DNA of 64,000 nt. It comes from Octopus sinensis. Its lineage: Eukaryota. A program made the translations under genes and the position numbers. The notes below the pieces were generated by a model. That model was not told the origin of the DNA. It worked only from the letters and a program-made list of their open reading frames with translations, and searched no databases. The DNA is taken from positions 38,006,001 to 38,070,000 of the forward strand of contig NC_043008.1 of the NCBI RefSeq assembly GCF_006345805.1, given 5' to 3'. This document shows positions 1 to 59,031 of this stretch, piece after piece. Position 1 is the first letter of the stretch. Every line of letters starts with the position of its first letter.

Positions 1-562
1 TGGAGGGGTATGTGTATATGTGTGTGTGTGTGTGTGTGAGGAGGAATATTTTGATTCAGTTCATATTTAGGACAATTTTAATTAAATGCTAATATGCAGA
101 AACTAAATAACCTGATATTTAATATTAATAGCACAGAAAGCAACAATCTTGGATGGTGCTTCATAAAAATAAAATAAAAATAGGAAATAAAAAATAAAAA
201 TTGTAACCATTAAAGAGAACAGCAGGATGCAACTGAACAGACGGGAAGCCAACATCTATCAGCTATTTTTATAGAAATACTACAGTCTTGTATTTTCAAT
301 AGAGTTTGGTAAAAAAATAAGCAAAAGGAAAAATATAATTTTTGATTAGTTGCGTTTATCTGTACAAAATCCTCCTAAAGGGTTGTCTAAAAATTTTTTA
401 AATCTGTGTGAATAGAAATATAACTGAAAGTGGTATTTTATTCTAATAATCTCAGAAGGATAAAAAGTAAAGTTGACTTGGGTAAGTTTTGAACTCAGAA
501 CAGAAAATGTCAGAACAAATACCCAATTCTATCAATCTTTGATATTATAACATGGTTAATAA

Positions 563-785
563 TGGTTTCAATTTTTGGCACGAGGCCAGCGATTTCAGGG
601 GAGTGGGTAAGTTGGTTAGATTGATCCCCAATACTTAACTGGTACTTATTTTATTGACCCTGAAATGATAAAAGGCAAATTTATCTCGGCAGGATTTGAA
701 CTCAAAATGTAAAGATAGACAAAATGCCACAACACAATGTTTTGCATACCTGATGTGCTAACGATTCTGCTAACTCACCAACTTA
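563..785 (-). mobile_element. tRNA-derived SINE, family A (diverged copy)
   Basis: Matches the 33370-33600 copy (actggtacttattttattgaccc...ggatttgaactca...gctaacgattctgc). A second partial copy follows at ~795-925. Confidence 0.75.
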
Positions 786-924
786 ACAATAATTATCCTT
801 TCCACTAAAAGCACAAGGCCTGAAATTTGGGTGGGGGGTGATAAGGCAATTACATCAACTCCAGTGTTTCACTGGTTCTTAAATTTTCAACCCTGAAGGG
901 ATGAAAAGCAAAGTCGACATTGGC

Positions 925-966
<42 letters not shown>

Positions 967-983
967 TAATAATGATAATAATG

Positions 984-1047
<64 letters not shown>

Positions 1048-1053
1048 TAATAA

Positions 1054-1625
1054 TTGAATGCCTTGATGCAGTACCAGGCAGTGGCTCTTGTGGCTTCTGA
1101 TCTTAATGGATTCGAAGTGTTATCATGTACATTGTTTTGTCTTGGTATAAAAAATGGGCTACAGCAAATATTCTGCTCAATTCCACAGATTTGCTTGTCA
1201 GTTGTTTGACCGTAACCAGTTGAGTATGTACCTTAGTGACTGATGATATGTGCATCTCTAATCACGAGCAGAAGTAGTGGGGGAGCATCATAGCCATGTG
1301 TTGAGAGGGACTCTTTGAGGTTTGAATACTTCACCTTTGGAAACATGGGTGTTTCGTTCAACATCCTTAAACAACCCTTATTCAGGGACCTTTTGAGCAG
1401 GATGGGTTACTTGACCAGAAGAAAATTCTAACTGGGCCCCGCCTGCAAGGTCATGTGCTGTTTATCTTGATATGAGATCACCATGTCGCGCACATATGGT
1501 TGTGATGCATGTGCCTAGTGTACCCTTATCAGACGTGTAGTCATGATGGGCTTCATATATTTTGCCCCAGTGTCACTTTGATGGCATGCACTGCTCTCTC
1601 ACTCAATGATAATGATAATGATAAT
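1054..1625 (+). mobile_element. ~560-bp dispersed repeat, family C (probable non-LTR retroelement 3' end with (ATA)n-like tail)
   Basis: Closely similar copies at 7878-8428 (minus) and 13018-13385 (plus). All end in ctctcactcaa followed by (gat/aat)n and lie next to (AAT)n tracts. Confidence 0.75.
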
Positions 1626-4224
1626 ACTGTCAGATCATTGATGTAGCCATACCAAATGACATGAATGTTGTGAGTAAAGAGGTTGAAAATAATCACCAAG
1701 TACTCTGAATTGCAAGTGGAAATGGCAAGACTGCATGGAATGCAAGAGGATAATGTAAAAGTGATAATAGTGGTGATCGAAGTGTTGGGCTCAGTGTGTA
1801 TATCTATGTGTGAGCATATGTGTGTGTGCTTGCGCATGTACATGTGTGTACACATGCACACTATACTAGTTTCTTACATTCTTTCATGGAATCAGTGTCA
1901 CTATAGATTTGGCTGGGAATGTAGTTGATTAAATATAGTGTTAGTTTACTAGTTTCACTGGTACTTGATACATTGATCTGGGCTGGGCTGGAACTTGGTA
2001 CTGAAGCAATTGCAGTAAATAGCATAACTTCAATTTGCTTGCTATCTCAGCTATCTCTCTATACATTTATTATATATAAATTGTGAAAACCTCCTAAACA
2101 TTTAATGGTTTGTTGAATTACCACTAAATGGCCCGTGTTTAAAGTGTGTTAATTTGTCACAGTCTCATCTTATCTAGAGCATTAAACAGTATTTGGCTCA
2201 TGATCTCCAAAGTTGTGGGTTCAATTCCATGACTAGTTGAAATGAGCAAAGTACTTCTTTACAAATTATTCTAAGTTACACATCTACAATTGACTACCCA
2301 TCAGTTACTAGTGCAGCCCTTTTTTCCTCCACGTATCACATCCTACTTATCCATCTGGGTCAAGGATGACAGGGACAAAATATCTGAATCTGCTCATGAC
2401 CACCGAAGAACCTAAAACAATTTGCTTGGTAATACATACCAGGCCAAACTCGATCATGAATGATGGCTACTTGTACAAGGCTATTGACTACAACTATAAA
2501 CTGCCGACATTGGGGTTGAAATAGCATGGGAATTAAACGTAGTATAAACCCAGTTCTTCAAAAGCACTTATACATTATAACAATTAATTACATAAATCAA
2601 CATCATCTTTTAAATGTATTTGTTATTTTTTAATACCGATTCTTCTTTTGGGTTATTTATTTTCACTTGCAAAATATAATTAACTGGAATTTGTAGTCTG
2701 GCAAATTATGAGAACTATTGATTTATGTGTTAGACTTATTTGTGATATTACTTCAATGAATGTATAAATATTTATGAACAGTATAAATAAGAGGCCATAT
2801 ATTGTATAGTTGTAATTTAGGAAGAATTCTGAGTTTGAATTTTAAAATACTTTAGTCATGTTAATACACTTGTCTTGCAAGAAGCTTAGAATAACTTATG
2901 TAGTATAATGAGATAAGATGATTTCTAAATGTTAATGAGTATTTAATAATATATGTTTCCTGAAGAAGAGTTCTGTTTAAAGACAAATGACCTGCATTTT
3001 GTATTCATGGATTCAGAATTCTGGAAGCTATCTAATATTAAAGAATTTACAAGATGGCCTTACGCCATCTCATTCAATTCTATCTTTGAATCTTTAACAT
3101 ATATGCTGATTCTTTTCCAACCAATTTACATACAAAGAAGAACTAATGAACTTAAAAATCAAATTAACAGTGAACTTAATTAAAAATTAGCAGTGTAAAA
3201 GGGTAACTGAGTCTAGGCCTCACACTTAAAACTATTTTCCAATCATTCATCTACAGGATTCCTAAGCCTTATGAGATCCTTTTTTACCTACATTTCTCCC
3301 ACTTAGATTCAGCTTACTTCAAATGAATTAAGCGCACTAGTCCAAAAGGGCCTGCAATGAATATGGGTGCTGTCCCTTTTCCCAGACTATTTAAAAAATA
3401 GAACAATCACTGCAGTCCATGTATATACATTTAACATTTTGACCCAAGAAAGGAAATTTGATACCATTTTTCCTTATGGGTCTGTCGGGGTGGCATCTTT
3501 TTCTAATCTCCTATCTTAAGACAACATACCTCAAGTAGATGAGCTACAGGTAAAAACTCCACAGCTATCTCCATCTAATCACATATTTTTGCAATTATCT
3601 TTAATAATTATTTTTTAAAAATCCTGAAGAATACACTGGATGATAACATTATGTCCGAATGAAACTAAGATGGGATGGTCATGGCCAGATTTTCTGTTCA
3701 AGATCAGATAGAACTGTTCTTGATTAGAGTTGACCTGGTGCTAAACAACCACCAAATTAAATACAAATGCAGCACCATATCATCTCAGCTGCCATTGTAT
3801 AACCCATTCAGCACTCCTAACACTAACACCATTTGGTAGAACTACTTTAGCAGACAGACTTAGGCTATTCAAAGATAGAATTACCACCACCAACACTGCT
3901 GCCATTGCCATTATTCCCAACACCACCACCATCAGCACCACTACAACCAGGGGTGACCAATGAAGTATAATAGACATTGCTTCCTGTCACCACCTACACC
4001 AACACCATCACCATCACTGTCCCCACAAACCACTGTATACAGCGGGTGCACACACACACGCACACACACACACACATACACATACACATGAGCATGGAAG
4101 GATTCTTTCAGTTTTTGTTAACCAGATCCACTCACAAGGCTTTGGTCAGTCTGAGGCTGCAGTAAAAGACACTTACAAAAAAGGTGCCACAAACCCAGAA
4201 CCATATGGTTGGGGAGCAAGCTTT

Positions 4225-4455
4225 TTATTTCTTTATTGCCCACAAGGGGCTAAACATAGAGGGGACAAACAAGGACAGACAAAGGGATTAAGTCGATTAC
4301 ATTGACTCCAGTGTGTAACTGGTACTTAATTTATCAACCCCGAAAGGATGAAAGGTAAAGTTGACCTCGGCAGAATTTGAACTCAGAACGCAACGGCAGA
4401 TGAAGTACCACTAAGCATTTCACCTGGCATGCTAACGTTTCTGCTAGCTTACCTG
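4225..4455 (-). mobile_element. tRNA-derived SINE, family A
   Basis: Highly similar to 33370-33600. Abuts a family-B SINE head at ~4095-4225. Confidence 0.85.
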
Positions 4456-5334
4456 TGCCTCGTTTTATCAGTGAAATAGTTCGTTTCTGATTCTACAATA
4501 AAGTGATTTGGGTTTACATTAAACTAAAAAAAATTGGCAATGAGTATGTGTGTGTGTATGGTGGGAGGCTGTGTGCATGTGGGATTGTGTATTTCTGTTG
4601 TAATACTGGGTAACTTGGCACAGAAAACAGACAGATCAATTTAAATATCTTTAGGGAAGGTGTACAAATTCAGTGAAACATTTGTTGCACAAATAACCTC
4701 TTACTGAAACAACTGTTGTGTTTAGCATACAAATGTTGTGAGGAAGAGGACGAAGGAGGCCGAGGGAAATAGGCGGAGATGGATGGTTTTGGTGGTGGTG
4801 GTGGTGGTGGGAGGGGTGAGTGGTTCAGCGGCGGCGGCGGCGGTGGTGGCAGTGTTCTGCTAATGGTTGTGACAGTCAGTAAAACAATTGCCATCAGCTG
4901 TAAGAGCTACAATAATACCAACATCAATATTCATCATCAAAACTGCCCGATCATGGAAAAAAACTTTCATTGTCCCCCCTGTCCTACTCCTCCTCCTCCT
5001 CCTCATCATCATCATCATGAGCATCATTGTTGTCGTTTTTATTATCATGGTAAAAGGGACTGTGCATATGTGTGTGTGCCTGCATGTGTGTGCATATGTT
5101 TTTATATATATATATAATATATATTGGAATATTGCTTCAAATTCATGGAACTCACTCCTACAACTTCATAAGGATACTTACACTCTCTAAGATGTTTGGA
5201 AAACCTATATGAAATTTAGCTGAAGAATACTTGACATTATATTTGCTGTAATATTTGCAGCTTTAAATAAAATGTTTATAGTATGAAACAACTGTACTAA
5301 ACTACTGATCCATTCTTGTTGCTTTTTTCTTGGT

Positions 5335-5373
<39 letters not shown>

Positions 5374-5652
5374 GTGTGTGTGTCTAACCCATGCCAGCAA
5401 AGACAATGGACGTTAAATTATGATGATGATATACACACACATACACACAGGTGTATATGCAAGTAAATGAACAAATGAAAGCAGGTAGCACTCAAGACAT
5501 TTGGTGGAAGCTACATTCGTTTGTAATAAGAGTTTTATTCAGTTTCACATGTCTCAGTTTCATCAGATCATTGAATATGTGTTGCAACTTTGAGTAAAAA
5601 CTTGTGTATCTATGTATGTGTGTGTGTGTATGTAACTGTTTGCATGTGTGTA

Positions 5653-5693
<41 letters not shown>

Positions 5694-6350
5694 TTGCTTG
5701 GATGTACAGGTTTTGTATGCATACATAAGTATATGAGCTATTAGTATGTGTATTCATTGTGTATGTGTGTGTGCATATATATGTACATATATTTGTATAT
5801 ATGCATGTATATGTATGTGTCTATATGTAAGTGTCGCTGTGTATATGTATACATAGATTTGCAATAGGTATATATACACACACGTTTGCATGTGTATATT
5901 TAGGCTTTAGGTTGTATATATTTGGGTGTCTAAGACTATCAGATAATATTTTGTTCAAACTGATAATAGTGTATGAGGGTCTGTTTGATAATGTGTGCAC
6001 TAATTGTGGTAAGCACTTGAATGGTCACAGGAATTCTGGTGCCAGCTTGAACTTTTGCTTATCTCTGTTGAATTTGTAAGGAAAATTCCCTCCTCTTTCT
6101 CCCCACGATCCTTCATCTCTATTTTTCTTTGCCTTTGGCTTCTTTTCATCTTTTATTGCTTCTTTAGTCCTCTTTGAATACATAAATAATTACGATTGCG
6201 ATCTATGAAATTTATTCTCTCAGAGTTCTACCCTATATATATATTGCTAACAGCCCTTTAAATTTCAACGGTTCTTCAAATGTACTGACTTGCTCTGCCG
6301 ATACTTGGCAAACTGAATCGATTTGAATTGTTTTCTCTTCTATTTAAAAA

Positions 6351-6436
6351 CACCTGAAGAGAGCGGATTATTTTTATGATATAATCGTTGTAATCAAAAA
6401 GTAATCAATAAAAATACTACTGAAACACTTGTTATG
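6351..6436 (+). ncRNA. degenerate type-I hammerhead ribozyme motif (Penelope-like)
   Basis: cac-CTGAAGA (6354)...long stem II region...GAAAC (6422)-actt-GTT-atg. Stem I and stem III are imperfect. Confidence 0.4.
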
Positions 6437-6477
6437 AATCTTCAAACTCCTCGTGTGTTCTTTTTTATCTATATATT

Positions 6478-6885
6478 CTTTCTTTTATTTGCTTCAGTCA
6501 TTTGACTGTAGCCATGCTGGAGCACCACCTTTAGTCAAAGAAATCAATCTCAGGACTTATTCTTTGTAAGCCTAGTATTTATTTTATCGGTGTCTTTTGT
6601 CAAACCACTAAGTTACAAGACATAAACACACCATCAGTTGTCAAGCGATGGTGGGGGGACAAACACTGACACACAAACATATACATATATATGCATGTAT
6701 ATATGACAGGCTTCTTTCAGTTTCCATCTACCAAATCTGCTCACAAGGCTTTGGTCAGCCTGAGGCTATGGTAGAAGACACTTACCCAAGGTGCTATGAA
6801 GTGGGACTGAACCCAGAGCCATGTGGTAGTGCTCCAGCATGGCCACAGTCAAATGACTAAAACAAGTAAAAGAGAGTAAAAGAGC
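6478..6885 (-). mobile_element. tRNA/CORE-type SINE, family B
   Basis: Reverse complement of 62158-62572, including the CORE-like accttgggcaagtgtctt segment. Confidence 0.85.
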
Positions 6886-23180: not shown

Positions 23181-24904
23181 TGTATGACAGTGGCAAAATT
23201 ATTTTCAACTCTTTTGTGATGCCAAGACTTAGAGGACACAAGCATACACACATGCACGTGCACGCACACAGACACACACACAAACACACACACAAGTATA
23301 TGCCAAGCCTCTTTCAGTTTCCCTCTACCAAAGCCATTCACAAGGCTTTGATAAACCTGGGGCTATAGTAGAAGACACTTGCTGAAGGTGTCATGCAGGT
23401 GGACTGAACTCAAAACCAAAGAAGGTGAGAAGCAAACTTAATTTTAAATACAAAATAGTTTTATTTGATGCATGTAAATGCTTCATCTAGTATCCAGTAG
23501 ACATGTATTGTGCATAATGGATTAACAAGTTTGAAGGATCAGATAGTGTCTGCACAGGTAAAATGGTATGATGAGGGGTGTCTGTTTACTTTTCAGATGT
23601 TTGTGTATCCATATAGAAGTCATCATAAGAGGTCTTCATATGTGATGTCTACGTGAAGTAGGAATTTTGAAATAGCATTTCTATAGTCATTGGTATATTG
23701 AGATTTGTTCATGTACAATATCAAACTTTCATTCATTGCTTAAAAGCAATTATGTGGTGTCAATAGATATAAAAAAAGTCTCACATATTTTTTGTATCAT
23801 CACATGTTAAGACCTTAATTCTGATACTGTTGAGTCTGTTGACATATTCAGAATGTAGCAATAAAAATTAGTAATTTTGTGATTCTGTTAATGTCACATT
23901 ATTACCAATTACTTTAAACCGAGATTTTCTTAAAGCCAGTTTGGTCCCTAAAATATTAATTTCTCAGTATTTTAGTTGATAAATGGTAATTTCAGTTGCT
24001 GATGTAATAATCCTTTCTACTATAGACACAAGGCTTGGAATTTGGTGGCATGATCCAAGTCAGTGACATTAACCTGCAGTGTGCAACTGGTACTGGTTTC
24101 ATTGATTGTGAAAGGATGAAACGTAAAATCAGCCTTGCTGGAATTTGGACCCTGAACATAAAGATGGTTGAGATTCCGCAAAGCATTTTGTCCAGCATGC
24201 TATAATGATTCTGTCAGTTCATCACCATTGTTACTCTAATAATAGGAAACTGTTATAATAGAAAGCATTCTAAGAGACAAAGAATGCTATATATAAATAT
24301 ACTACTGTGAAAGAGTAAAATGTTTGGTCTAGAAAGTTAGTAACTTTCTAAAAATTAATTTTAGAGATATTTCTTTAAAGTAAATCTTTAGTAATTGTTG
24401 TTATTGTTGGCATCTTATTGTATCTAGTAAATATATTTCAATGAGCTAGGTTTCATTTTTTCAAGTCTATCTATTAGCCACACAATGCAAGAATAGATTT
24501 AATATTTTTCTCTTCATTTTAATTAGTTTTGAATTTTTCTGTATTATGATTACAGAAAATTATGATAAATGATACTAATATCAAGTTTACAATGAAAGCT
24601 ATTATTTTATTTAAAATATCATCTAACACAATTTGAATAGAATAATTCACAATATAGAGGGCTTTAAATAGTTATCATGAACTTAGTAATCTCCTTGTCT
24701 GAGACCAGTCAATTCATTCACATTGAGTTCTTCATTTAAAACTGTTATATTGGAATTGGTTAAAGCGCAGCCACAGTGAAAGCATTTCTACATGGTCAAG
24801 TCCCATAACAGAACCACAAATTAATGAAACAATTTGTCAGTTTTATATTATGTTATATCATATTCTCCATTCATTGTAGTAAAACTTATCAATATTGTTT
24901 TCAC

Positions 24905-25300
24905 CAAATCTCTGAGGTTGAGGGCAAGAGTTCCAAACCAATAAATTCTTCCTTCTAAATGGCAGTTAACCTTGTCAATCTCTTCTGTAAGCGACATTGT
25001 TTCTGCCAGACCCTCAAGGTTGAGGGCAAGAATCCTGAATCAATAATTAACATACTCTTCTCTCTTTACTGTAGTTAAGCTTATAAAACTTCTCAATGAA
25101 ACAATCCTATTCTCAGCAATTCTCTCAAAGCAAGGGTTCCAAACCAATAAATACTTCCTTCCACATGGCAGTTATACTTATCAAACACCTCCATAACAAC
25201 AATATTCTTTTCAAGAAACCCTCAAAGTTGAGACAGTCTAAAACCAATATGTTCAATTTCATATGGCAGTTAAATATATATAATTCTCTTATAAAACTCT
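24905..25300. repeat. degenerate ~105-bp tandem repeat, ~4 units
   Basis: Recurring ggttgagggcaag / ccaaaccaataaat / atggcagtta motifs at ~105-bp spacing. Confidence 0.6.
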
Positions 25301-25526
25301 TCCATGGTACTAACTGTTACCAACATAGATGACCTTCACCAGTGTCTTAGAATTCCGGAGTTTATTGTTAGTCAAAATCAGCTGAATGTGTTTGCCATAG
25401 ATTCAAAGAAGAACTGGCAGTAGTTGGAGATAAAGATAATTCTATGGTTTTGGATCAATGATTGATACTTTATTGATTGAATCATCTGTAGAATTAATTC
25501 ATCGGTTTAACGCCTCCATTTGGTCA

Positions 25527-25721: not shown

Positions 25722-25773
<52 letters not shown>

Positions 25774-26019
25774 AATATATATATATATATATAATTAATC
25801 AATATAGGGTGGCAAAAAAATTTTGTAGAATTTCTTTGCCACCAGCGGCCTAGTGGGAAAAAATTAAATAGTCATAGACCATTTATAAGTTCAACATCAC
25901 AATCAAGGAACGGCCATAATAGGCCATTCACCCACTAGAAATAACAGCCAAAGCTTCAACCGCAAAATAACATTAATTCCGCAAACCAGGAGAAAATTAA
26001 AAAAAACATTTACCCTGTA

Positions 26020-26126
26020 ATTTCTTATACGATGCACCGTTTCATCTATTGTTTAATGGTAAACTAACCTGATTAAATTAAATCAAGCCAATCTTCCATA
26101 GGCCCTTAGATTCGTCAGTAAGAAAT
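26020..26126 (-). ncRNA. type-I hammerhead ribozyme (mirror copy)
   Basis: Exact reverse complement of 26369-26475. Confidence 0.85.
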
Positions 26127-26368
26127 AGCCAGATCGGAACAGATATTTTCACGAGGCACTTCTGTCCCTGCCTCGGCAATATCTGACCTAAAATTTTCAA
26201 ATCATCGCACTCGCGCCAAATTTATCGGCAGCAAATAAATATAAGCCGGCTTATATTTATTTGCTGCCGATAAATTTGGCGCGAGTGCGATGATTTGAAA
26301 ATTTTAGGTCAGATATTGCCGAGGCAGGGACAGAAGTGCCTCGTGAAAATATCTGTTCCGATCTGGCT

Positions 26369-26475
26369 ATTTCTTACTGACGAATCTAAGGGCCTATGGA
26401 AGATTGGCTTGATTTAATTTAATCAGGTTAGTTTACCATTAAACAATAGATGAAACGGTGCATCGTATAAGAAAT
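26369..26475 (+). ncRNA. type-I hammerhead ribozyme
   Basis: Stem I atttctta/taagaaat (8 bp), core CTGACGA (26377), stem II atcta/tagat with a long loop, GAAAC (26452), near-palindromic stem III acggtgcatcgt, cleavage triplet GTA (26465-26467). Confidence 0.85.
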
Positions 26476-26596
26476 TACAGGGTAAATGTTTTTTTAATTT
26501 TCTCCTGGTTTGCGGAATTAATGTTATTTTGCGGTTGAAGCTTTGGCTGTTATTTCTAGTGGGTGAATGGCCTATTATGGCCGTTCCTTGATTGTG

Positions 26597-26631
<35 letters not shown>

Positions 26632-27489
26632 TAAATATATAAATATATATATATATATATAAATATATAAATATATATATACACATATAATATACATATA
26701 CATGAAATATACATATATGCATATATATCTCTCTGTGTGTGATGTGTACATGTGTGTATGTGTGTGATAGGTGTATATATATATGTATGTATGTATATAA
26801 TATATGCATATAATATATTTGTATTTTGTTACATACATACTGATGCAGACATACATATATGCATACAGGCTCACACACATACATACATATTTGCATATAT
26901 AAGTACATACATAAACCAAAGTTTCCATAACTAAGTAAGCAAATTACCTAATATTAGTGTTTAATGTTGCCTACATATTGGACACAGGATGTGTGTATGT
27001 ATGCATGCAACTATGTGTGTGTTTGTGTGCATCTGAGAATGCGTGTTTTTGAATGTGTGTGTGTGTGTGATAGAGAGATAGAGAGGAAGAGAGAGAGAGG
27101 CATACAGATAGAAATAGAGACAGAGACAAAGACAGACAGACGGACAGGTAGACAAAGACAGACAGGTAAATAGACAAAACAAGAGAGATAATACTGCTTA
27201 CTCCATATGAGGTCTGACCAGAGATTTAGAGGAATCTGTAAGATGTCTCTAAGAAGACCAAGTGGAAGTATAATGTCACAAGAATTCCAAATTGTGATAA
27301 TAGCACTAGATACACAGTTTGACAAATATTGCTGGCAGACAAAGCTGGTATCATACTGGTTTACTATTCTGTTTACACAATGAAAATATCAAAATAAAAA
27401 TTTAAAACAAGTCTGGTAGACGTCAACTAAAATGGTAAAAAAAAACAAAAACGAATATACTTATTTTTAATACATATGTTTATACTACA

Positions 27490-28253: not shown

Positions 28254-28505
28254 TCCAGGAAGTGTAAGGGATAAAGTATCATAGCATAACAGAAATGGAT
28301 CTAAGGGAACACTTTTTTATATACTTCTTCTTCTCCCTCCAGGAAGTGTAAGGGATAAAGTATTGTAGCATAACAGAAATGGATCTAAGGGAACACTTTT
28401 TTATATACTTCTTCTTCTCCCTCCAGGAAGTGTAAGGTATAAAGTATCGTAGCATAACAGGAATGGGTCTAAGGGAACACTTTTTCAATATACTTCTTCT
28501 CCCTC
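28254..28505. repeat. 84-bp tandem repeat, 3 copies
   Basis: tccaggaagtgtaagg starts at 28254, 28338 and 28422. Confidence 0.95.
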
Positions 28506-40640: not shown

Positions 40641-40774
40641 GACAAAGGACACTAAAATAAGAATAATTAAGTTGAAGTGAAGACAATTATATAGTGAAAG
40701 TATCTAATTTGCAAAAATATAACCACCCCCAAATATATATATATATATATATTATTTATTTATTTATTTATTTA

Positions 40775-41053
40775 TTTAAATGGCACAAAACATGTTTTTA
40801 AGTACTGCCAATAGTTTCTTATGTTGAGAAATACTCAAACATATTCTTCAGGCACAAACCACATATCATGATGAACTAAAAAGAATTGAATAAATAGAAG
40901 AAACGTGAAAAGAACTGAGAAGGCATTTCTTCTATTATTCAATTTCTTTAGTTCGTTATGATATGTGGTTTGTGCCTGAAGAATATGTTTGAGTATTTCT
41001 CAGCATATGAAACTATTAGTAGCACTTAAAGACATGCATTGTGCCCTTAAAAT
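40775..41053. mobile_element. fold-back element with a hammerhead in each arm
   Basis: Arms ~130 bp, spacer ~20 bp, between (TA)n tracts. The minus-arm hammerhead (40802-40855) has GCA at the cleavage site. Confidence 0.85.
40972..41025 (+). ncRNA. type-I hammerhead ribozyme
   Basis: gtgc-CTGAAGA-atatgtttgag(tattt)ctcagcatat-GAAAC-tatta-GTA-gcac. All core nucleotides and all three stems are present. Confidence 0.85.
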
Positions 41054-41407
41054 ACAAAATATTTAACTCTCTCCAGGAGTACTTTTTTTGTTGAATTTTC
41101 TAGCATAGAACAATACATTATATATACATATATATATATATATACATTCTGGCATTTGCTGAATTTTCTTGAGAACATTTCTTAGTGGTAAGACATATAG
41201 AGGATCTACTTCTTGCATAAGGGTTGTCCACGTTGTGGTCATCCCTATTATATATATATGTATGTAATATAATTTTCTGAACCTTCAGATTTTAATATGC
41301 TAGACCACTGGTTTTAAATTGATATTAATCAAAGTAATATTCAATTTTTCACCCTCATTTTGAATTTGAATTTTATATATATATATATGTGTATATATAT
41401 GTATATA

Positions 41408-48010: not shown

Positions 48011-49425
48011 TTTAGTGTCTGTTTACCATGCTGTCATGTGTTGAATGGCTCAACAGAGCACAGCACCAAGCTCAGATGTCTACTTTGGCATGGTTTCTAC
48101 AGCTGGATGCCCTTCCTAATGCTAACCAGTTTATAGACTGTAGTGGATGCTTTTAAAGCAGAACTGGCTCTAGTAAGATTACCGAGTAAATCACAAAACC
48201 TGATAAGCTCACTATTGCCAGTATCATGTAAAAAAAAAAGCAGAAGAAACCAGCCAACACGCTCTGCAATAAACAATAAAAACCACTGTGCAAAATGAAA
48301 TTTATTTGCTCATAATTCATTTCAGAAATATGAATGTATTACATGAGAGCACTGCAGAACAAAGGTGGCTTGTTATTCAGAAATATTTTGCTCCAATATA
48401 TAATTTCAGTTTAACAACAACAGATGAAAGAGTTCATAGGTGATCCACTAACTAGAAGAATTATTAATATGCTGCTTAGCAGGACTACAGATTTAATTAA
48501 TGATGTGCCGATACATTCTGGTCAACCAATGTCAGTCAGACTGAGGAAACGTTCTACTAGTTGGCCAATATTACATACATGCATTCTGAATGTATGTATG
48601 GATGGATGAATGGATGGATGTGTCTGTGTCCATATATATATATATATATCATCGGCAGCATTTAATGTCCATCTCCCATGCTGGCATGGTTTGGATGACT
48701 CTTCAAGAGCTGGCAAGGCAGAGAACTGTGTCGACTTTTATTGTCTGTCTTGGCATGGTTTCCCCACTTGTATGCTCTTCCTAACACCAACCACTTTACA
48801 GAGTGTGTACAAACACACACACACACACACACACATTTATTCTTTAAAAGGAAGTGTTTACAGTAACTTCGAAGTCTTAGCTGGTAGAAACTTCAATGTT
48901 ACTTTCAACACTATTTTTACTCTTTTACTCTTTTAGTTGTTTCAGTCATTTGACTGTGGCCATGTTGGAGCACCGCCTTTTAGTCGAGCACATTGACCCC
49001 AGGACTTATTCTTTGGCAACCTAGTACTTATTTCATTGGTCTCTTTTGCCAAACCGCTAAGTTATGGGGACGTAAACACAACACCATCGGTTGTCAAGCG
49101 ATGTTGGGGGTGACAAACACAGACATACAAACATACACACACACATATATATATATATATACATATATATATGATGGGCTGCTTTCAGTTTCCATCTACC
49201 AAATGGTCCTCATCAGGGATTAAATAATCCAAAAGTTCCACTGGTTAATGACTATTATATAAAGAGACAGTCTTGATGATATGTTAGGGATTATTATAGT
49301 GTTACATACACTTACTCTTTTACTTGTTTCAGTCATTTGACTGCGGCCATGCTGGAGCACCACCTTTAGTTGAGCAAAGCGACCCCGGGACTTATTCTTT
49401 GTAAGCCCAGTACTTTCAACATATT

Positions 49426-50142
49426 CATATTGAAAGAAAGAAAATGGAGAATAATAGATGTATGAATAATTTATTTGTTTGATATCAAGATTTTTAATTT
49501 TTTATAAAAATAATACAAATAAATTATAAAATGTAAAGCTCTAAAAGAAATCGGAGATGCCAAAAGCCTATGTATATGTTTCGAATCATGCCCCTAGTTC
49601 ATATGTAATTCTAAGCATTTGCTAAGAATTGGTATAATTGGTAAGGGGCAGAATTCCATCAGGGATTAACATATGTCTGCCCCATCCAATTGAAAATGAT
49701 ACCAATTCTTAGCAAATGGTTAGAATTACATATAAACTAGGGGCATGATTTGAAACATATACATAGGCTTTTGGCATCTGCCATTTCTTTTAGAGCTTTA
49801 CATTTTATAATTTATTTGTATTATTTTTATAAAAAAATTAAAATCTTGATATCAAACAAAGAATTGGTATCAATTTCAATTGGATGGGGCAGAAATATGT
49901 TAATCCCTGATGGAATTCTGCCCCTTACCAATTATACCAATTCTTAGCAAATGCTTAGAATTATATATTAGCTAGGGGCATGAATCAAAACATATAAGTA
50001 GGCATTTTGGCATCTGACATTTCTCTTAGAGCTTTGCAATTCATAATTCATTTGTATTGTTTTTATAAAAAATTTCAACATCTTTATATTATAAAAAGGA
50101 ATTATTTATACATCCATTATTCTCCATCTTCTTACTTTCAAT
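49426..50142. mobile_element. triple-segment Penelope-like pseudo-LTR array (one inverted, two direct) with degenerate hammerheads
   Basis: Segment ~49426-49712 (minus) is the reverse complement of 49861-50142, and 49697-49860 is a partial direct copy. Motif: CTGATGg-aattctgcccct...aggggcatgattc-GAAAC-atatac-ata. Confidence 0.8.
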
Positions 50143-50209
50143 ATATATATATGTGTGTGTGTGTGTGTGAGTGTGTGTGTGTTAGTGTGTATTTATATAT
50201 ATGTATGTA

Positions 50210-50282: not shown

Positions 50283-50335
<53 letters not shown>

Positions 50336-50352
50336 TATATACATATATACCT

Positions 50353-53300
50353 ACTGAAAGGTAGGTCGGGTGAGATAGTTGAGATGCTTGAAGGGAGATG
50401 TGTGGATATATGCTGCATGCAAGAAGTAAGGTGGAGAGGAGGTTCTGCTAGGTTCCTCACAGGCAAGGAACACAGGTACAAGATTTTCTGGGCAGGGAAC
50501 ACTGACGGGGTTGGAGGCGTGGGTATACTTATCGCTGAGAAATGGGTAGATAAAGTAATTGAGGTAATCAGAGTATGCGACAGAATACTTAAGATTAGAT
50601 TAGCGCTTCATCATAGTTTAGCAACCATTATATCAGCCTATGCTCCTCAGTCGGGGCTACCTGATGGACAGAAAGATCGATTCTATGACACTCTACTGCA
50701 GACTACCTCGTTGACGAACGACAGAGATCTTCTCTTTGTGGCTGGTGACTTCAATGGTCACGTTGGACGACATGCTGTGGGTTTCCATGGCGTACATGGA
50801 GGCTATGGCTCTGGTTCCCACAACGAGGAGGGAACCAGGCTGCTGGAGTTCTGCGATGCAAATAATCTTATGATTTGCAACACTAACTTCAGGAAACCTA
50901 CCAGCCACCTAGTCACCTACCGATCGGGCCAACATACCAACCAAATTGACTACATCCTTGCCAGGCAAAGGGAGAGATGGCTACTTATAAACGCCAAAAC
51001 CTTCCCAGGCGAAGAATGTACACCACAACATAGACTGGTAGTTAGTGACTTTAGGATCAGGAGTAGGAGGACAACCAGAAGACGACCAACATGGAGAAGA
51101 AGGATCTGGAAGCTTAAGGATCCTGTGAATGGACAGAGATTTAGAGACATGTTACATGAAGCCTTTGACGAAGTAGAAGGGGATAGAGTATCACATGGGG
51201 TAGAGGACAACTGGACGTTTCTAAGGGACAACCTGCTGAAAGCCACTGACCAGATCTGTGGCTGGTGCAAAGTCCCCTCTCGTCCCAAGGTAACGTGGTG
51301 GTGGAACAGTGTCGTAGACAGGGCTATTAGAGAAAAGAGACAGACTTGGAAGCACTGGAAGAATGGTGGTAGCAGGGAATTGTATCAGACTGCTAAAAGG
51401 GAAGCTAGGAGACAGGTCTATCTAGCCAGAGGGGAAGCAGATAAAAAAAAATTTGCCAATGTTCTGCGCCGTGAGGACCAAAGACTGGAGGTGTTTCGCG
51501 TTGCAAGACAGTGTGTGAGAGAGAATTGTGATGTGGTGGAGAGAAGTGTGTTCGCATGGAAGATGGTTCACTTGCGCTAAACGAGGATGCAAAGAGAGAG
51601 GCTTGGAGATGCCACTATGAAAGGTTGCTGAATAAAGAAAATGAATGGGATAAAGAGAGTCTGCCGAACGTTGACCCAACAGAGGGACCAGCTATCAGGG
51701 TTGATAGTTCCTTGGTAGCTAAGGCAATTAGAAGCATGAAGACAGGGAAAGCCCCAGCCCATCAGGTATCACTGCAGAGATGCTCAAAATATCTGGTAGC
51801 GTCGGCTATAGCCTAGTCACCTGTATAGTTAATCAGGTGATACATGAAGGAGTCATACCCAATGACTGGTGTAGCAGCATAATAGTCAACTGCTACAAAG
51901 GTAAAGGTGATGCCCTAGATACAAATAATTACAGAGGTATCAAGCTGTTGGATCAGGTGATGAAGGTTACAGAGAGGGTCATAAGCCAACTAATTAGAGA
52001 GAGAGTTAGTTTAGATGAGATGCAGTTTGGTTTCGTGCCAGGGAAAAGTACCACTGATGCTATATTCCTGGTAAGGCAGCTGCAGGAGAAATACCTAGCC
52101 AAAGATAAGCCTCTGTACCTGGCTTTTGTTGACATGGAGAAAACCTTCGACAGGGTCCCCCGATCCCTCATATGGTGGTCAATGAGGAAACTAGGAATAG
52201 ATGAATGGTTAGTGAGAGCTGTGCAAGCCATGTACAGGGACGCTGCTAGTAAGGTGAGGGTTGGCAATGAGTACAGTGAAGAATTCCGGGTAGAGGTAGG
52301 GGTCCACCAAGGCTCAGTCCTCAGCCCCCTCCTATTTATCATAGTCCTCCAGGCAATAACGGAGGAATTCAAGACAGGATGCCCCTGGGAGTTCCTCTAT
52401 GCTGATGACCTTGCTCTAATTGCTGAGTCATTATCAGAACTGGAGAAGAAGTTTCAGGTGTGGAAGCATGGTTTAGAATCGAAGGGCCTTAGAGTCAACC
52501 TAGCTAAAACCAAAGTCATAATAAGTAGGAAGGTAGACAAATCACAAACGCCTTCAGGTAGATGGCCCTGCTCGATCTGTAGAAAAGGTGTAGGTAGAAA
52601 CTCTATAAGATGCACCAAGTGTAAGCTATGGACACATAAGAGGTGCAGCAATGTCATAGAAGGCTAACTAGGAAGATGGTTTTTGTATGTGGCAGATGCT
52701 CGGGAGCATTAACCTCTGAAAATCTGCAGAAAACTACTTCCGTCACTTTCCAGGGGGAAAAACTAGAAGTAGTTGATAGCTTCCGTTATCTTGGTGACCA
52801 AATCAGTAGTGGGGGTGGGTGTGCTGAAAGTGTAACGGCTAGAGTAAGAATAGCCTGGGCAAATTTTAGGGAGCTCTTACCTCTGTTGGTGACTAAAGGC
52901 CTCTCGCTCAGAGTAAAAGGCAGACTGTATGATGCATGTGTACGAACAGCCATGCTACATGGCAGTGAAACATGGGCCGTGACTGCTGAGGACATGTGTA
53001 AGCTCGCGAGAAATGAAGCTTGTATGCTCCGTTGGATGTGTAATGTCAGTGTTCATAGTCGACAGAGTGTAAGTACCTTGAGAGAAAAGTTGGACCTAAG
53101 AGGCATCAGATGTTGTGTGCAAGAGAGACGATTGCGCTGGTATGGTCATGTGGTGAGAATGGATGAAGATAGGTGTGTGAAAAAGTGCCACACCCTGGCA
53201 GTTGAGGGGACCTGTGGAAGAGGTAGACCCAGGAAAACCTGGGTCGAGGTGGTGAAGCACGACCTTCGAACTCTAGGTCTCACCAAGGAAATGACCAGAG

Positions 53301-53353
53301 ACCGAGACCTATGGAAGTATGCTGTGCGTGAGAAGAACCGGCAAGACCAGTGA
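50353..53353 (+). pseudogene. APE endonuclease-reverse transcriptase ORF split by 3 frameshifts
   Basis: ORFs 50315-51580, 51556-51816, 51780-52667 and 52643-53353 join into one polyprotein with shifts near 51540, 51757 and 52657. No premature stops otherwise. The N-terminus of APE is missing. Confidence 0.9.
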
Positions 53354-53399: not shown

Positions 53400-53825
53400 C
53401 CCATCCGTTCGTGTCCGCTGTCAGCCTCGTCTGGCCCCCATGTCGGTGGCACGTAAAAGCACCATCTGTTCGTGTTCGTTGCCAGCCTCGCCTGGCCCCG
53501 TGCCGGTGACACGTAAAAGCACCGTCCGTTCGTGGCCATTTGCCAGCTCTGTCTGGCAACCGTGTCGGTGGCACGTAAAAGCACCATCCGTTCACGTCCG
53601 TTGCCAGCCTCGGCTGGCCCCCGTGCCGGTGACACGTAAAAGCACCGTCCGTTCGTGGCCGTTTGCCAGCTCTGTCTGGCCCCGTGTCGGTGGCACGTAA
53701 AAGCACCATCCGTTCGTGTCCGTTGCCAGCATCGCCTGGCCCCGTGCCGGTGACACGTAAAAGCACCATCCGTTCATGGCCGTTCACCAGCTCTGTCTGG
53801 CACCTGTGCAGGTGGCACGTAAAAA
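53400..53825 (+). repeat. ~61-bp tandem repeat, 7 copies, in the RTE 3' UTR
   Basis: cacgtaaaa recurs at about 53450, 53510, 53572, 53633, 53694, 53754 and 53816. Confidence 0.95.
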
Positions 53826-58407: not shown

Positions 58408-58882
58408 TACATACATACATATTCACACACCCACACACACATGTGTGTATATATATATATATATATACACATATACATGCATAGATATGCATATATACAC
58501 GTAAAAAATCATTAAAAGGTGAGCATGTATTTTCATCTTATATTTTTATAGTTATAATTACATTTTTACAGTAGCTACCTTTCCCCACATATTTAATAAA
58601 ATTTCTTTTAATGCAGTATCATTAGATTGCACTTAATTCAATGTGACTTTGAAATGTAAAAGGTTCTTCACCCCTGGTATATAATATTAACAAACCTTAC
58701 ACCCCACCCTTACAAATAGTATAGCATGTCATGATCTTCCTGTCATTTCGATATCAACATGTTTTTCTTTAAATATGTATACTACTGCATATATACATAT
58801 ATATGTATATATAAATATATAATTATATATAAAAAATATATATTTATATATTACGTAGGTAGGTAGGATAATTATTCGAATG

Positions 58883-58978
58883 ACTGTCTGAAGAATTTCT
58901 AGCAGAAAATCTCTTACATGCTTATCAAACACAAACAATTTTGTAATTCCTATCAGGAAATGAAACATGTGTAATGGT
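58883..58978 (+). ncRNA. type-I hammerhead ribozyme motif
   Basis: actgt-CTGAAGA (58888)-atttct...ggaaat-GAAAC (58962)-atgt-GTA-atggt. Stem I has G-U wobbles. Located in a ~170-bp island between (TA)n tracts. Confidence 0.7.
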
Positions 58979-59031
58979 GAATAAATACTACCAAATAATT
59001 TTCCAATTTCCTGTTTCATTATATATCATAT

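Follow-up and report, generated by a model that had tools for sequence, protein, structure and literature searches.

We found that a palindrome at 25896-26598 of the 64-kb window (the whole stretch of DNA analyzed here, to which all coordinates refer) comprises two hammerhead-bearing ends of a highly repeated element, placed head-to-head within a TA microsatellite, and likely represents one recent insertion of a Penelope-like element (PLE) whose ribozyme is predicted to be locked. We assign this reading, taken as a whole, a probability of about 0.8. In its 5′ truncation, inverted copy, hammerhead near the 3′ end and TA target, the locus has the anatomy of a PLE end insertion, and its PLE parentage rests on this anatomy because the reverse transcriptase (RT) gene of the parent was not recovered. 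There is no gene within the insertion, which is probably a dead stub.

Architecture of the palindrome and its flanks

The left arm (25896-26247, 352 bp) aligns with the reverse complement of the right arm (26248-26598, 351 bp) with no substitutions and one indel, namely a run of A8 at 25999-26006 (plus strand) as against T7 at 26489-26495, a homopolymer whose length also varies across copies of the family. The arms meet with zero spacer at AAGCC|GGCTT (26247|26248) and constitute the only exact inverted repeat in the 64-kb window (arms of at least 20 bp, spacer of at most 10, simple repeats excluded). The near-perfect, spacer-less 703-bp palindrome with a single homopolymer difference that a preliminary description had reported is thereby borne out, as is its left-hand extension of about 100 bp: beyond the left arm, 102 bp more (25794-25895) lead up to a (TA)n tract, and the right arm is devoid of these 102 nt.

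Taking the minus strand as sense, 25794-26247 is the main copy, a 5′-truncated 3′ end of a highly repeated element, predicted to form a chain of hairpins, with the hammerhead 234 nt from its end. The second copy (26248-26598, plus strand), identified by the alignment of the arms, is inverted head-to-head and lacks the last 102 nt, such that its hammerhead lies 132 nt from its end. The one-sided tail (25794-25895, minus strand), within which family coverage begins at ~25810, features a 15-bp hairpin at 25808-25843, and fold prediction places an 8-bp hairpin (25908-25929, minus strand) just within the short end. Both ends of the element thus show the same arrangement of a hairpin, a gap of 12-14 nt and then the end, with TTGATT in the gap as a candidate end signal. 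The arm with the tail folds into a structure that is much more stable than shuffled sequence (z = -5.8, with 0 of 100 shuffles as stable). There is no ORF in the arm.

With zero substitutions over 351 bp, the 95% upper bound on the divergence of the arms is 0.85%; should the octopus calibration that PMC13282606 quotes apply here, this would correspond to ~1.2 million years. The insertion is likely of recent origin, and gene conversion or homogenization between the arms could mask a greater age. Accordingly, the "very recent" insertion first proposed holds up as a likely recent one, the absence of substitutions speaking for recency and the capacity of the arms to be homogenized weakening the stronger claim.

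The palindrome is bounded by compound (TA)n tracts at 25737-25793 on the left and 26597-26653 on the right, in an AT-rich window that displays many (TA)n tracts and a GC content of 26-51% per 2-kb block, mostly 30-38%, and that resembles animal DNA, possibly that of an octopus. The two tracts match each other over 57 bp with 2 mismatches, the next-best matches in the window having 3-4 mismatches; this is suggestive of a target duplication but also fits one interrupted microsatellite tract, and is no proof of duplication. No host gene was identified near the palindrome, the neighboring ORFs being short or microsatellite read-throughs, and the one flanking ORF that was scanned gave no Pfam match. 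Elsewhere in the left flank, 24850-25330 contains degenerate direct repeats (24924-24990 and 25130-25196, 82% alike) whose minus-strand translations have in common an NCH..G.IYWFG-like motif and which are possibly decayed coding or repeat sequence. A separate 84-bp unit is present in three tandem copies, 80-98% alike, at 28254-28505.

Hammerhead motifs in the arms and elsewhere in the window

Both arms bear a type I hammerhead motif. That of the left arm occupies 26020-26126 of the minus strand (8-bp stem I, CUGACGA at 26118, GAAAC at 26043 and GUA at 26030-26028), and that of the right arm 26369-26475 of the plus strand (stem I formed by 26369-26376 and 26468-26475, CUGACGA at 26377, GAAAC at 26452 and GUA at 26465-26467). 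The motif contains the core elements CUGANGA, GAAA and UH together with helices I-III, of which stem III is short with a UGCA loop. Stem II spans 68 nt, made up of 5 bp and a 58-nt hairpin insert, and is closed by A-U rather than G-C. The G10.1-C11.1 pair at the base of helix II is absent, with A-U in its place both here and in the three other motifs of the window (see below), and position 11.1 varies in 20-28% of the depth in two of the sequencing runs (X2 and X3), breaking the pair.

A strict descriptor recovers only the two arm sites in the 64-kb window, while 30 shuffles yielded one weaker match and none of equal quality. The Rfam hammerhead model gave no match at its gathering score and none among the 45 matches up to E 10, likely because stem II is long. 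The preliminary description had spoken of an intact hammerhead on each strand: the motif is indeed there on both, and the word "intact" fails beyond the motif, in view of the 68-nt A-U-closed stem II and the lack of an Rfam match. Rfam microRNA matches to the arm were rejected, as they lie below the gathering score and reflect only the hairpin.

A relaxed descriptor identified five sites in the window, the two arms and those at 5220, 40976 and 58888, against none in 100 shuffles and two in 300 local shuffles; stem pairing is a search condition for these four motifs, for which the shuffles serve as the control. The four motif families (arm, 5220, 40976 and 58888) show no significant mutual sequence similarity, and a plain alignment of them was not used, as it misaligned the cores. 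All four possess GUA, an A-U stem II base and stems I and II that differ in sequence but are paired. A TA tract follows each of them 39-130 nt downstream, to be read against a baseline of 16% of window positions that have such a tract within 132 nt.

The motif at 40976 (plus strand) belongs to a second head-to-head palindrome at 40760-41120, ~14 kb from the main one, whose arms are ~83% alike and separated by ~40 nt of spacer, and which on one side extends further, up to a TA tract. The hammerhead is in its 3′ arm, with a decayed minus-strand mirror, and its sequence is unrelated to the main arm. This palindrome is older than the main one and is decaying; hence, the architecture is recurrent here and persists long enough to decay. 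The short stretches at 5126-5334 and ~58850-59027, each situated between TA-rich tracts, contain one lone type I hammerhead apiece (5220 and 58888), with GUA and A-U-closed stems II of 58 and 67 nt, respectively. Judging from these motifs, both are likely stubs left by further families of this type.

Further along, at 49421-50150, a ~290-bp unit is repeated twice in direct and once in inverted orientation; the copies are 85-88% alike and harbor a decayed hammerhead-like core with a 72-nt stem II; the array resembles the pLTR layout of two direct copies and one inverted copy. At 50285-53353 lies a non-LTR retrotransposon that is frameshifted and encodes endonuclease and RVT_1 domains; a ~61-bp tandem repeat follows at 53401-53824.

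The repeat family and alternative accounts of the palindrome

Of the 24 listed sequencing runs, 20, from nine studies and with four organism labels, carry the family by the presence of at least half of 41 words sampled from the arm; two carrier runs of only ~40 million letters contain 0.81-0.83 of these words, and one carrier run may be the window's own source. None of the listed carrier runs is labeled as RNA, some being unlabeled or presumed to be RNA, and this speaks neither for nor against expression. We aligned four of the 20 carrier runs, each available as contigs, to 25762-26300 (539 bp, with 25762-25807 left out as repeat), to which 537 to 6513 contigs per run could be fitted. Summed depth is not taken here as copy number, and depth past the center is not used, as contigs fit either arm.

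In all four runs, family coverage extends from ~25810 up to the center, and loose ends at 26247/26248 lead into one common continuation, of which up to 30 letters are visible. Because family copies continue past it, the zero-spacer junction (26247-26248) marks where a longer repeat was truncated; these copies match one base further (G26248) before diverging, so that the core of the junction is a self-complementary CG. At the opposite end, loose (TA)n ends lie exactly at 25896 in two of the four runs, with 11 contigs in X2 and one in X7 among the rows listed (24 of 208), and the right-arm end is thus a recurring (TA)n junction of the family. Two X3 contigs suggest a second candidate TA junction near 25915. 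Both arms also carry the same minority alleles, at 26159 (where the other base accounts for 97-99%) and at 26049 (83-95%) in runs X1-X3, and hence derive from one template. The original proposal of a minus-strand element joined to an inverted partial copy in the manner of PLEs is upheld by these data, given the truncation at the center and the recurrence of the right-arm end as a junction with TA in other copies.

Among the eight joints listed, three read as antisense-to-sense junctions that contain a spacer and in which the sense copy begins at 26248, 26240 or 26226, one is opposite-strand and four are simple internal skips; inserted letters occur at some other family joints. All of these are weak, being single contigs with sides of 24-37 letters, and an uninterpretable joint (26280 to 26097) was left out of the junction count. 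Three of four truncations fall within 53 of 453 bp near the center (P = 0.006), which we take only as a hint, as the choice of reference may bias it. Variant positions in the family avoid the paired bases to no significant degree (a pair is broken by 3 of 19 versus 5.4 expected, P = 0.10), none of the 19 affects the 23 hammerhead core positions (~1 expected) and covariation within the family is not significant.

Searches of metagenome, viral and prokaryote contigs recovered neither the RT nor the GIY-YIG gene of the parent and gave 0 matches to a 23-base hammerhead motif. The lone gapped-pattern match (L001, 705-800) was rejected as chance, being 59% GC and unlike the arm, with a best match of 14 bp at E 0.68. 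Four short motifs of the arm had 0 matches in the supplement of PMC8557442, as did short arm motifs in one small supplementary file of PMC13282606. Titles and abstract openings revealed no published account of the family of the arm or of a zero-spacer case; repeat libraries may list the family.

The absence of an ORF and the strong structure of the arm could also point to a non-autonomous, retrozyme- or SINE-like hammerhead element that made one insertion, from which break repair by the host or a template switch during replication subsequently produced the palindrome. Retrozymes likewise have type I hammerheads (PMC7229834), and one extra joint in X3 is tandem-like, with 26248 followed by 8 family letters and then 25820. 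However, the palindrome locus displays no such tandem, the arm has no direct repeat within the 64-kb window and retrozyme-type tandem units are absent here; moreover, most copies visible past the center continue in a manner unlike the tail, and host repair offers no reason for the mirror to stop where the family itself forms its TA junction. We therefore consider this origin improbable. As animal retrozymes have been argued to derive from PLEs (bioRxiv 10.64898/2026.07.22.740005), a non-autonomous parent would still partly fit the PLE insertion that we favor.

It is more improbable still that the palindrome is a fold-back artefact of sequencing or assembly, with only one arm at the locus. Its zero spacer, lack of substitutions and lone homopolymer indel are as such an artefact would have them, no contig crossing the center or linking it to the flanks is present among the 32 pieces listed out of 14,417 (contigs only), and fold-back reads are known from long-read data, at ~0.55-0.6% of ONT gDNA reads (PMC12870357). 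Yet a fold-back mirrors the sequence that precedes it, whereas the mirror here ends at 25896, where other copies join (TA)n, and gives way to a different flank that matches the mirrored tail at only 34 of 102 positions. The flanks have in common a compound-microsatellite motif that occurs only twice in the window and, apart from this, just one dispersed repeat that is 74% alike. Similar inverted junctions in the contigs of the runs, and the diverged palindrome of the same build at 40760-41120, further argue against an artefact.

Predicted folding of the hammerhead

The hammerhead fold of a single copy is predicted to lie 3.7 kcal/mol above the minimum when the motif is folded alone and 6.0 kcal/mol above it within the whole arm. 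The predicted probabilities of the three helices are 0.88, 0.98 and 0.04 for the isolated motif and 0.07, 0.96 and 0.01 inside one arm; all three are 0.00 inside the full palindrome, where the hammerhead fold is predicted to cost 150 kcal/mol. As the arms are head-to-head, the ribozyme is situated 3′ of its own complement in a read-through transcript from either side, and folding models predict that the motif is locked in any transcript through both halves. The locking of the ribozyme in a hairpin in either direction had already been suggested; the predicted effect is stronger than was claimed. The hammerhead would work only in the RNA of the parent, or else in a transcript whose start lies within the palindrome.

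The segment of helix III is self-complementary at 12 of 12 positions, and a duplex between two copies is predicted at -17.5 kcal/mol, which corresponds to the dimer type; the putative working hammerhead is probably a dimer or protein-assisted. In the family continuation past the center, we also observed ~12 nt that are complementary to 25973-25984, downstream of the hammerhead (a motif match with at most 2 mismatches). From its sequence, this complement may have formed a long-range helix that closes the ribozyme domain in the parent RNA and was lost through truncation. That the antisense arm is instead a selected host device, kept for silencing the ribozyme or feeding small-RNA or editing pathways, is scarcely credible: a read-through transcript would fold into a duplex of 351 bp that sequesters the whole hammerhead, but this lock follows automatically when the arms are head-to-head, the surroundings of the locus yielded no host gene and the older example nearby is decaying.

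A model for the origin of the inverted ends

For the PLE insertion, we posit that the element endonuclease would nick both strands of the TA tract and that reverse transcription would start at two alternative RNA sites, 25794 and 25896, the use of which would generate the one-sided tail. Both cDNAs would then stop early at base 26248, and their ends would join through the self-complementary terminal CG, resulting in the zero spacer. A loop-free intramolecular turn is sterically impossible; this leaves the CG pairing of two ends, a fold-back with a 2-nt loop or inheritance. The two-cDNA route is given slightly less than an even chance. Self-priming by the fold-back of one cDNA after the addition of a non-templated G, with a 2-nt loop, is quite possible at odds that stay well below even, and the copying of an already palindromic master is doubtful.

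A broader reading would recognize here several undescribed TA-targeting PLE families, whose hammerheads have a helix II that is A-U-closed and 58-72 nt long, are missed by Rfam and exceed the spacer of the published core search. One of these would be a young and very abundant family with two RT starts ~100 nt apart, each marked by a hairpin and TTGATT, and the zero-spacer junction would be two cDNAs joined end to end. Taken in its entirety, this reading is tentative and somewhat unlikely.

Significance

The locus itself matters little, being probably one of a great many dead stubs. It is of an already described kind in its head-to-head PLE insertion layout, TA target and hammerheads on both strands; a view of the structure as rare or surprising finds no support, given the published instances of this layout, including both-strand hammerheads, and the decayed, spacer-bearing example 14 kb away. 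Mildly new are the lack of any spacer, a tail of 102 nt whose candidate end signals match those of the other end, and a helix II, common to several families, that is long and closed by A-U.

The family, by contrast with the single locus, is an abundant natural record of PLE integration, with two ends, a possible truncation cluster near the center and spacers from 0 to ~380 bp. Its junctions could test models for the formation of inverted ends and tails, a step for which the studies cited here leave room, and, if the reading with several families and two RT starts were true, they could decide between the joining of two cDNAs and self-priming for the inverted ends of PLEs. Hammerheads with so long a stem II suggest that ribozymes of this type are more numerous than standard searches indicate. 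Were such hairpins transcribed, editing and silencing would be supplied with long double-stranded RNA from across the genome.

Comparison with known systems

The closest parallels are the insertions of endonuclease-bearing (EN+) PLEs. Arkhipova et al. 2013 (PMC3846280) describe tailed, inverted pLTRs whose head-to-head junctions are palindromic, for which self-priming was proposed, and Craig et al. 2021 (PMC8557442) report inverted 5′-truncated copies, 30-40-bp tails and (TA)n targets. Our locus agrees with the insertions in these accounts in its head-to-head inverted 5′ copy, palindromic junction and extension at one end, as well as in its heavy 5′ truncation and microsatellite target, where any duplication would likewise be indistinct. 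Unlike those insertions as they are described there, it has no ORF remnant, its spacer is zero over 351 bp and its tail is 102 nt long as against 30-40. Partial tandems of the sort that make up direct pseudo-LTRs in EN+ PLEs are absent from this locus, and the contigs of X3 contain one tandem-like joint. The PLE protein studied in PMC11167929 cleaves and extends both strands in vitro, with RT starting at two internal sites that bound the tail; according to the same source, the PLE hammerhead, a predicted dimer, needs the protein and is dispensable for insertion.

With the Hydra-clade PLEs, the locus has in common the (TA)n target and a type I hammerhead a few hundred nt from the 3′ end with a palindromic helix III. 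Two elements in the supplement of PMC8557442 are particularly close: Penelope-13_HM, which has an inverted 5′-truncated copy and a (TA)n target, resembles it in having hammerheads on both strands by way of the inverted copy, and Hydra-1_Obim, an octopus Hydra element, also has a stem II closed by A-U. The stem II of 68 nt differs from the ~10-25 nt of the Hydra motifs listed there, and the hammerhead core search of that study was set to spacers of 7-17 nt only. The non-coding end is compatible with Hydra, Neptune or Naiad as the clade of the parent.

Among retrozymes, which are tandem and feature type I hammerheads (PMC7229834), the non-LTR forms resemble the arm in being non-coding, structured and a few hundred nt in length with a type I hammerhead; they are head-to-tail tandems, unlike the one head-to-head pair seen here, which is cut from a longer parent. 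For the ribozyme itself, Cervera and De la Pena 2014 (PMC4209133) describe pairs of PLE hammerheads 100-700 bp apart on opposite strands, and metazoan type I hammerheads, mostly in truncated copies, with a palindromic helix III suited to dimers. The arm motifs depart from the hammerheads described there in their longer stem I (8 bp), 3-4-bp monomer helix III and very long stem II, in having no extra base between positions 9 and 10.1 and in the replacement of G10.1-C11.1 by A-U. They are like them in being type I hammerheads with a dimer-suited palindromic helix III, arranged as an opposite-strand pair within the same range of 100-700 bp.
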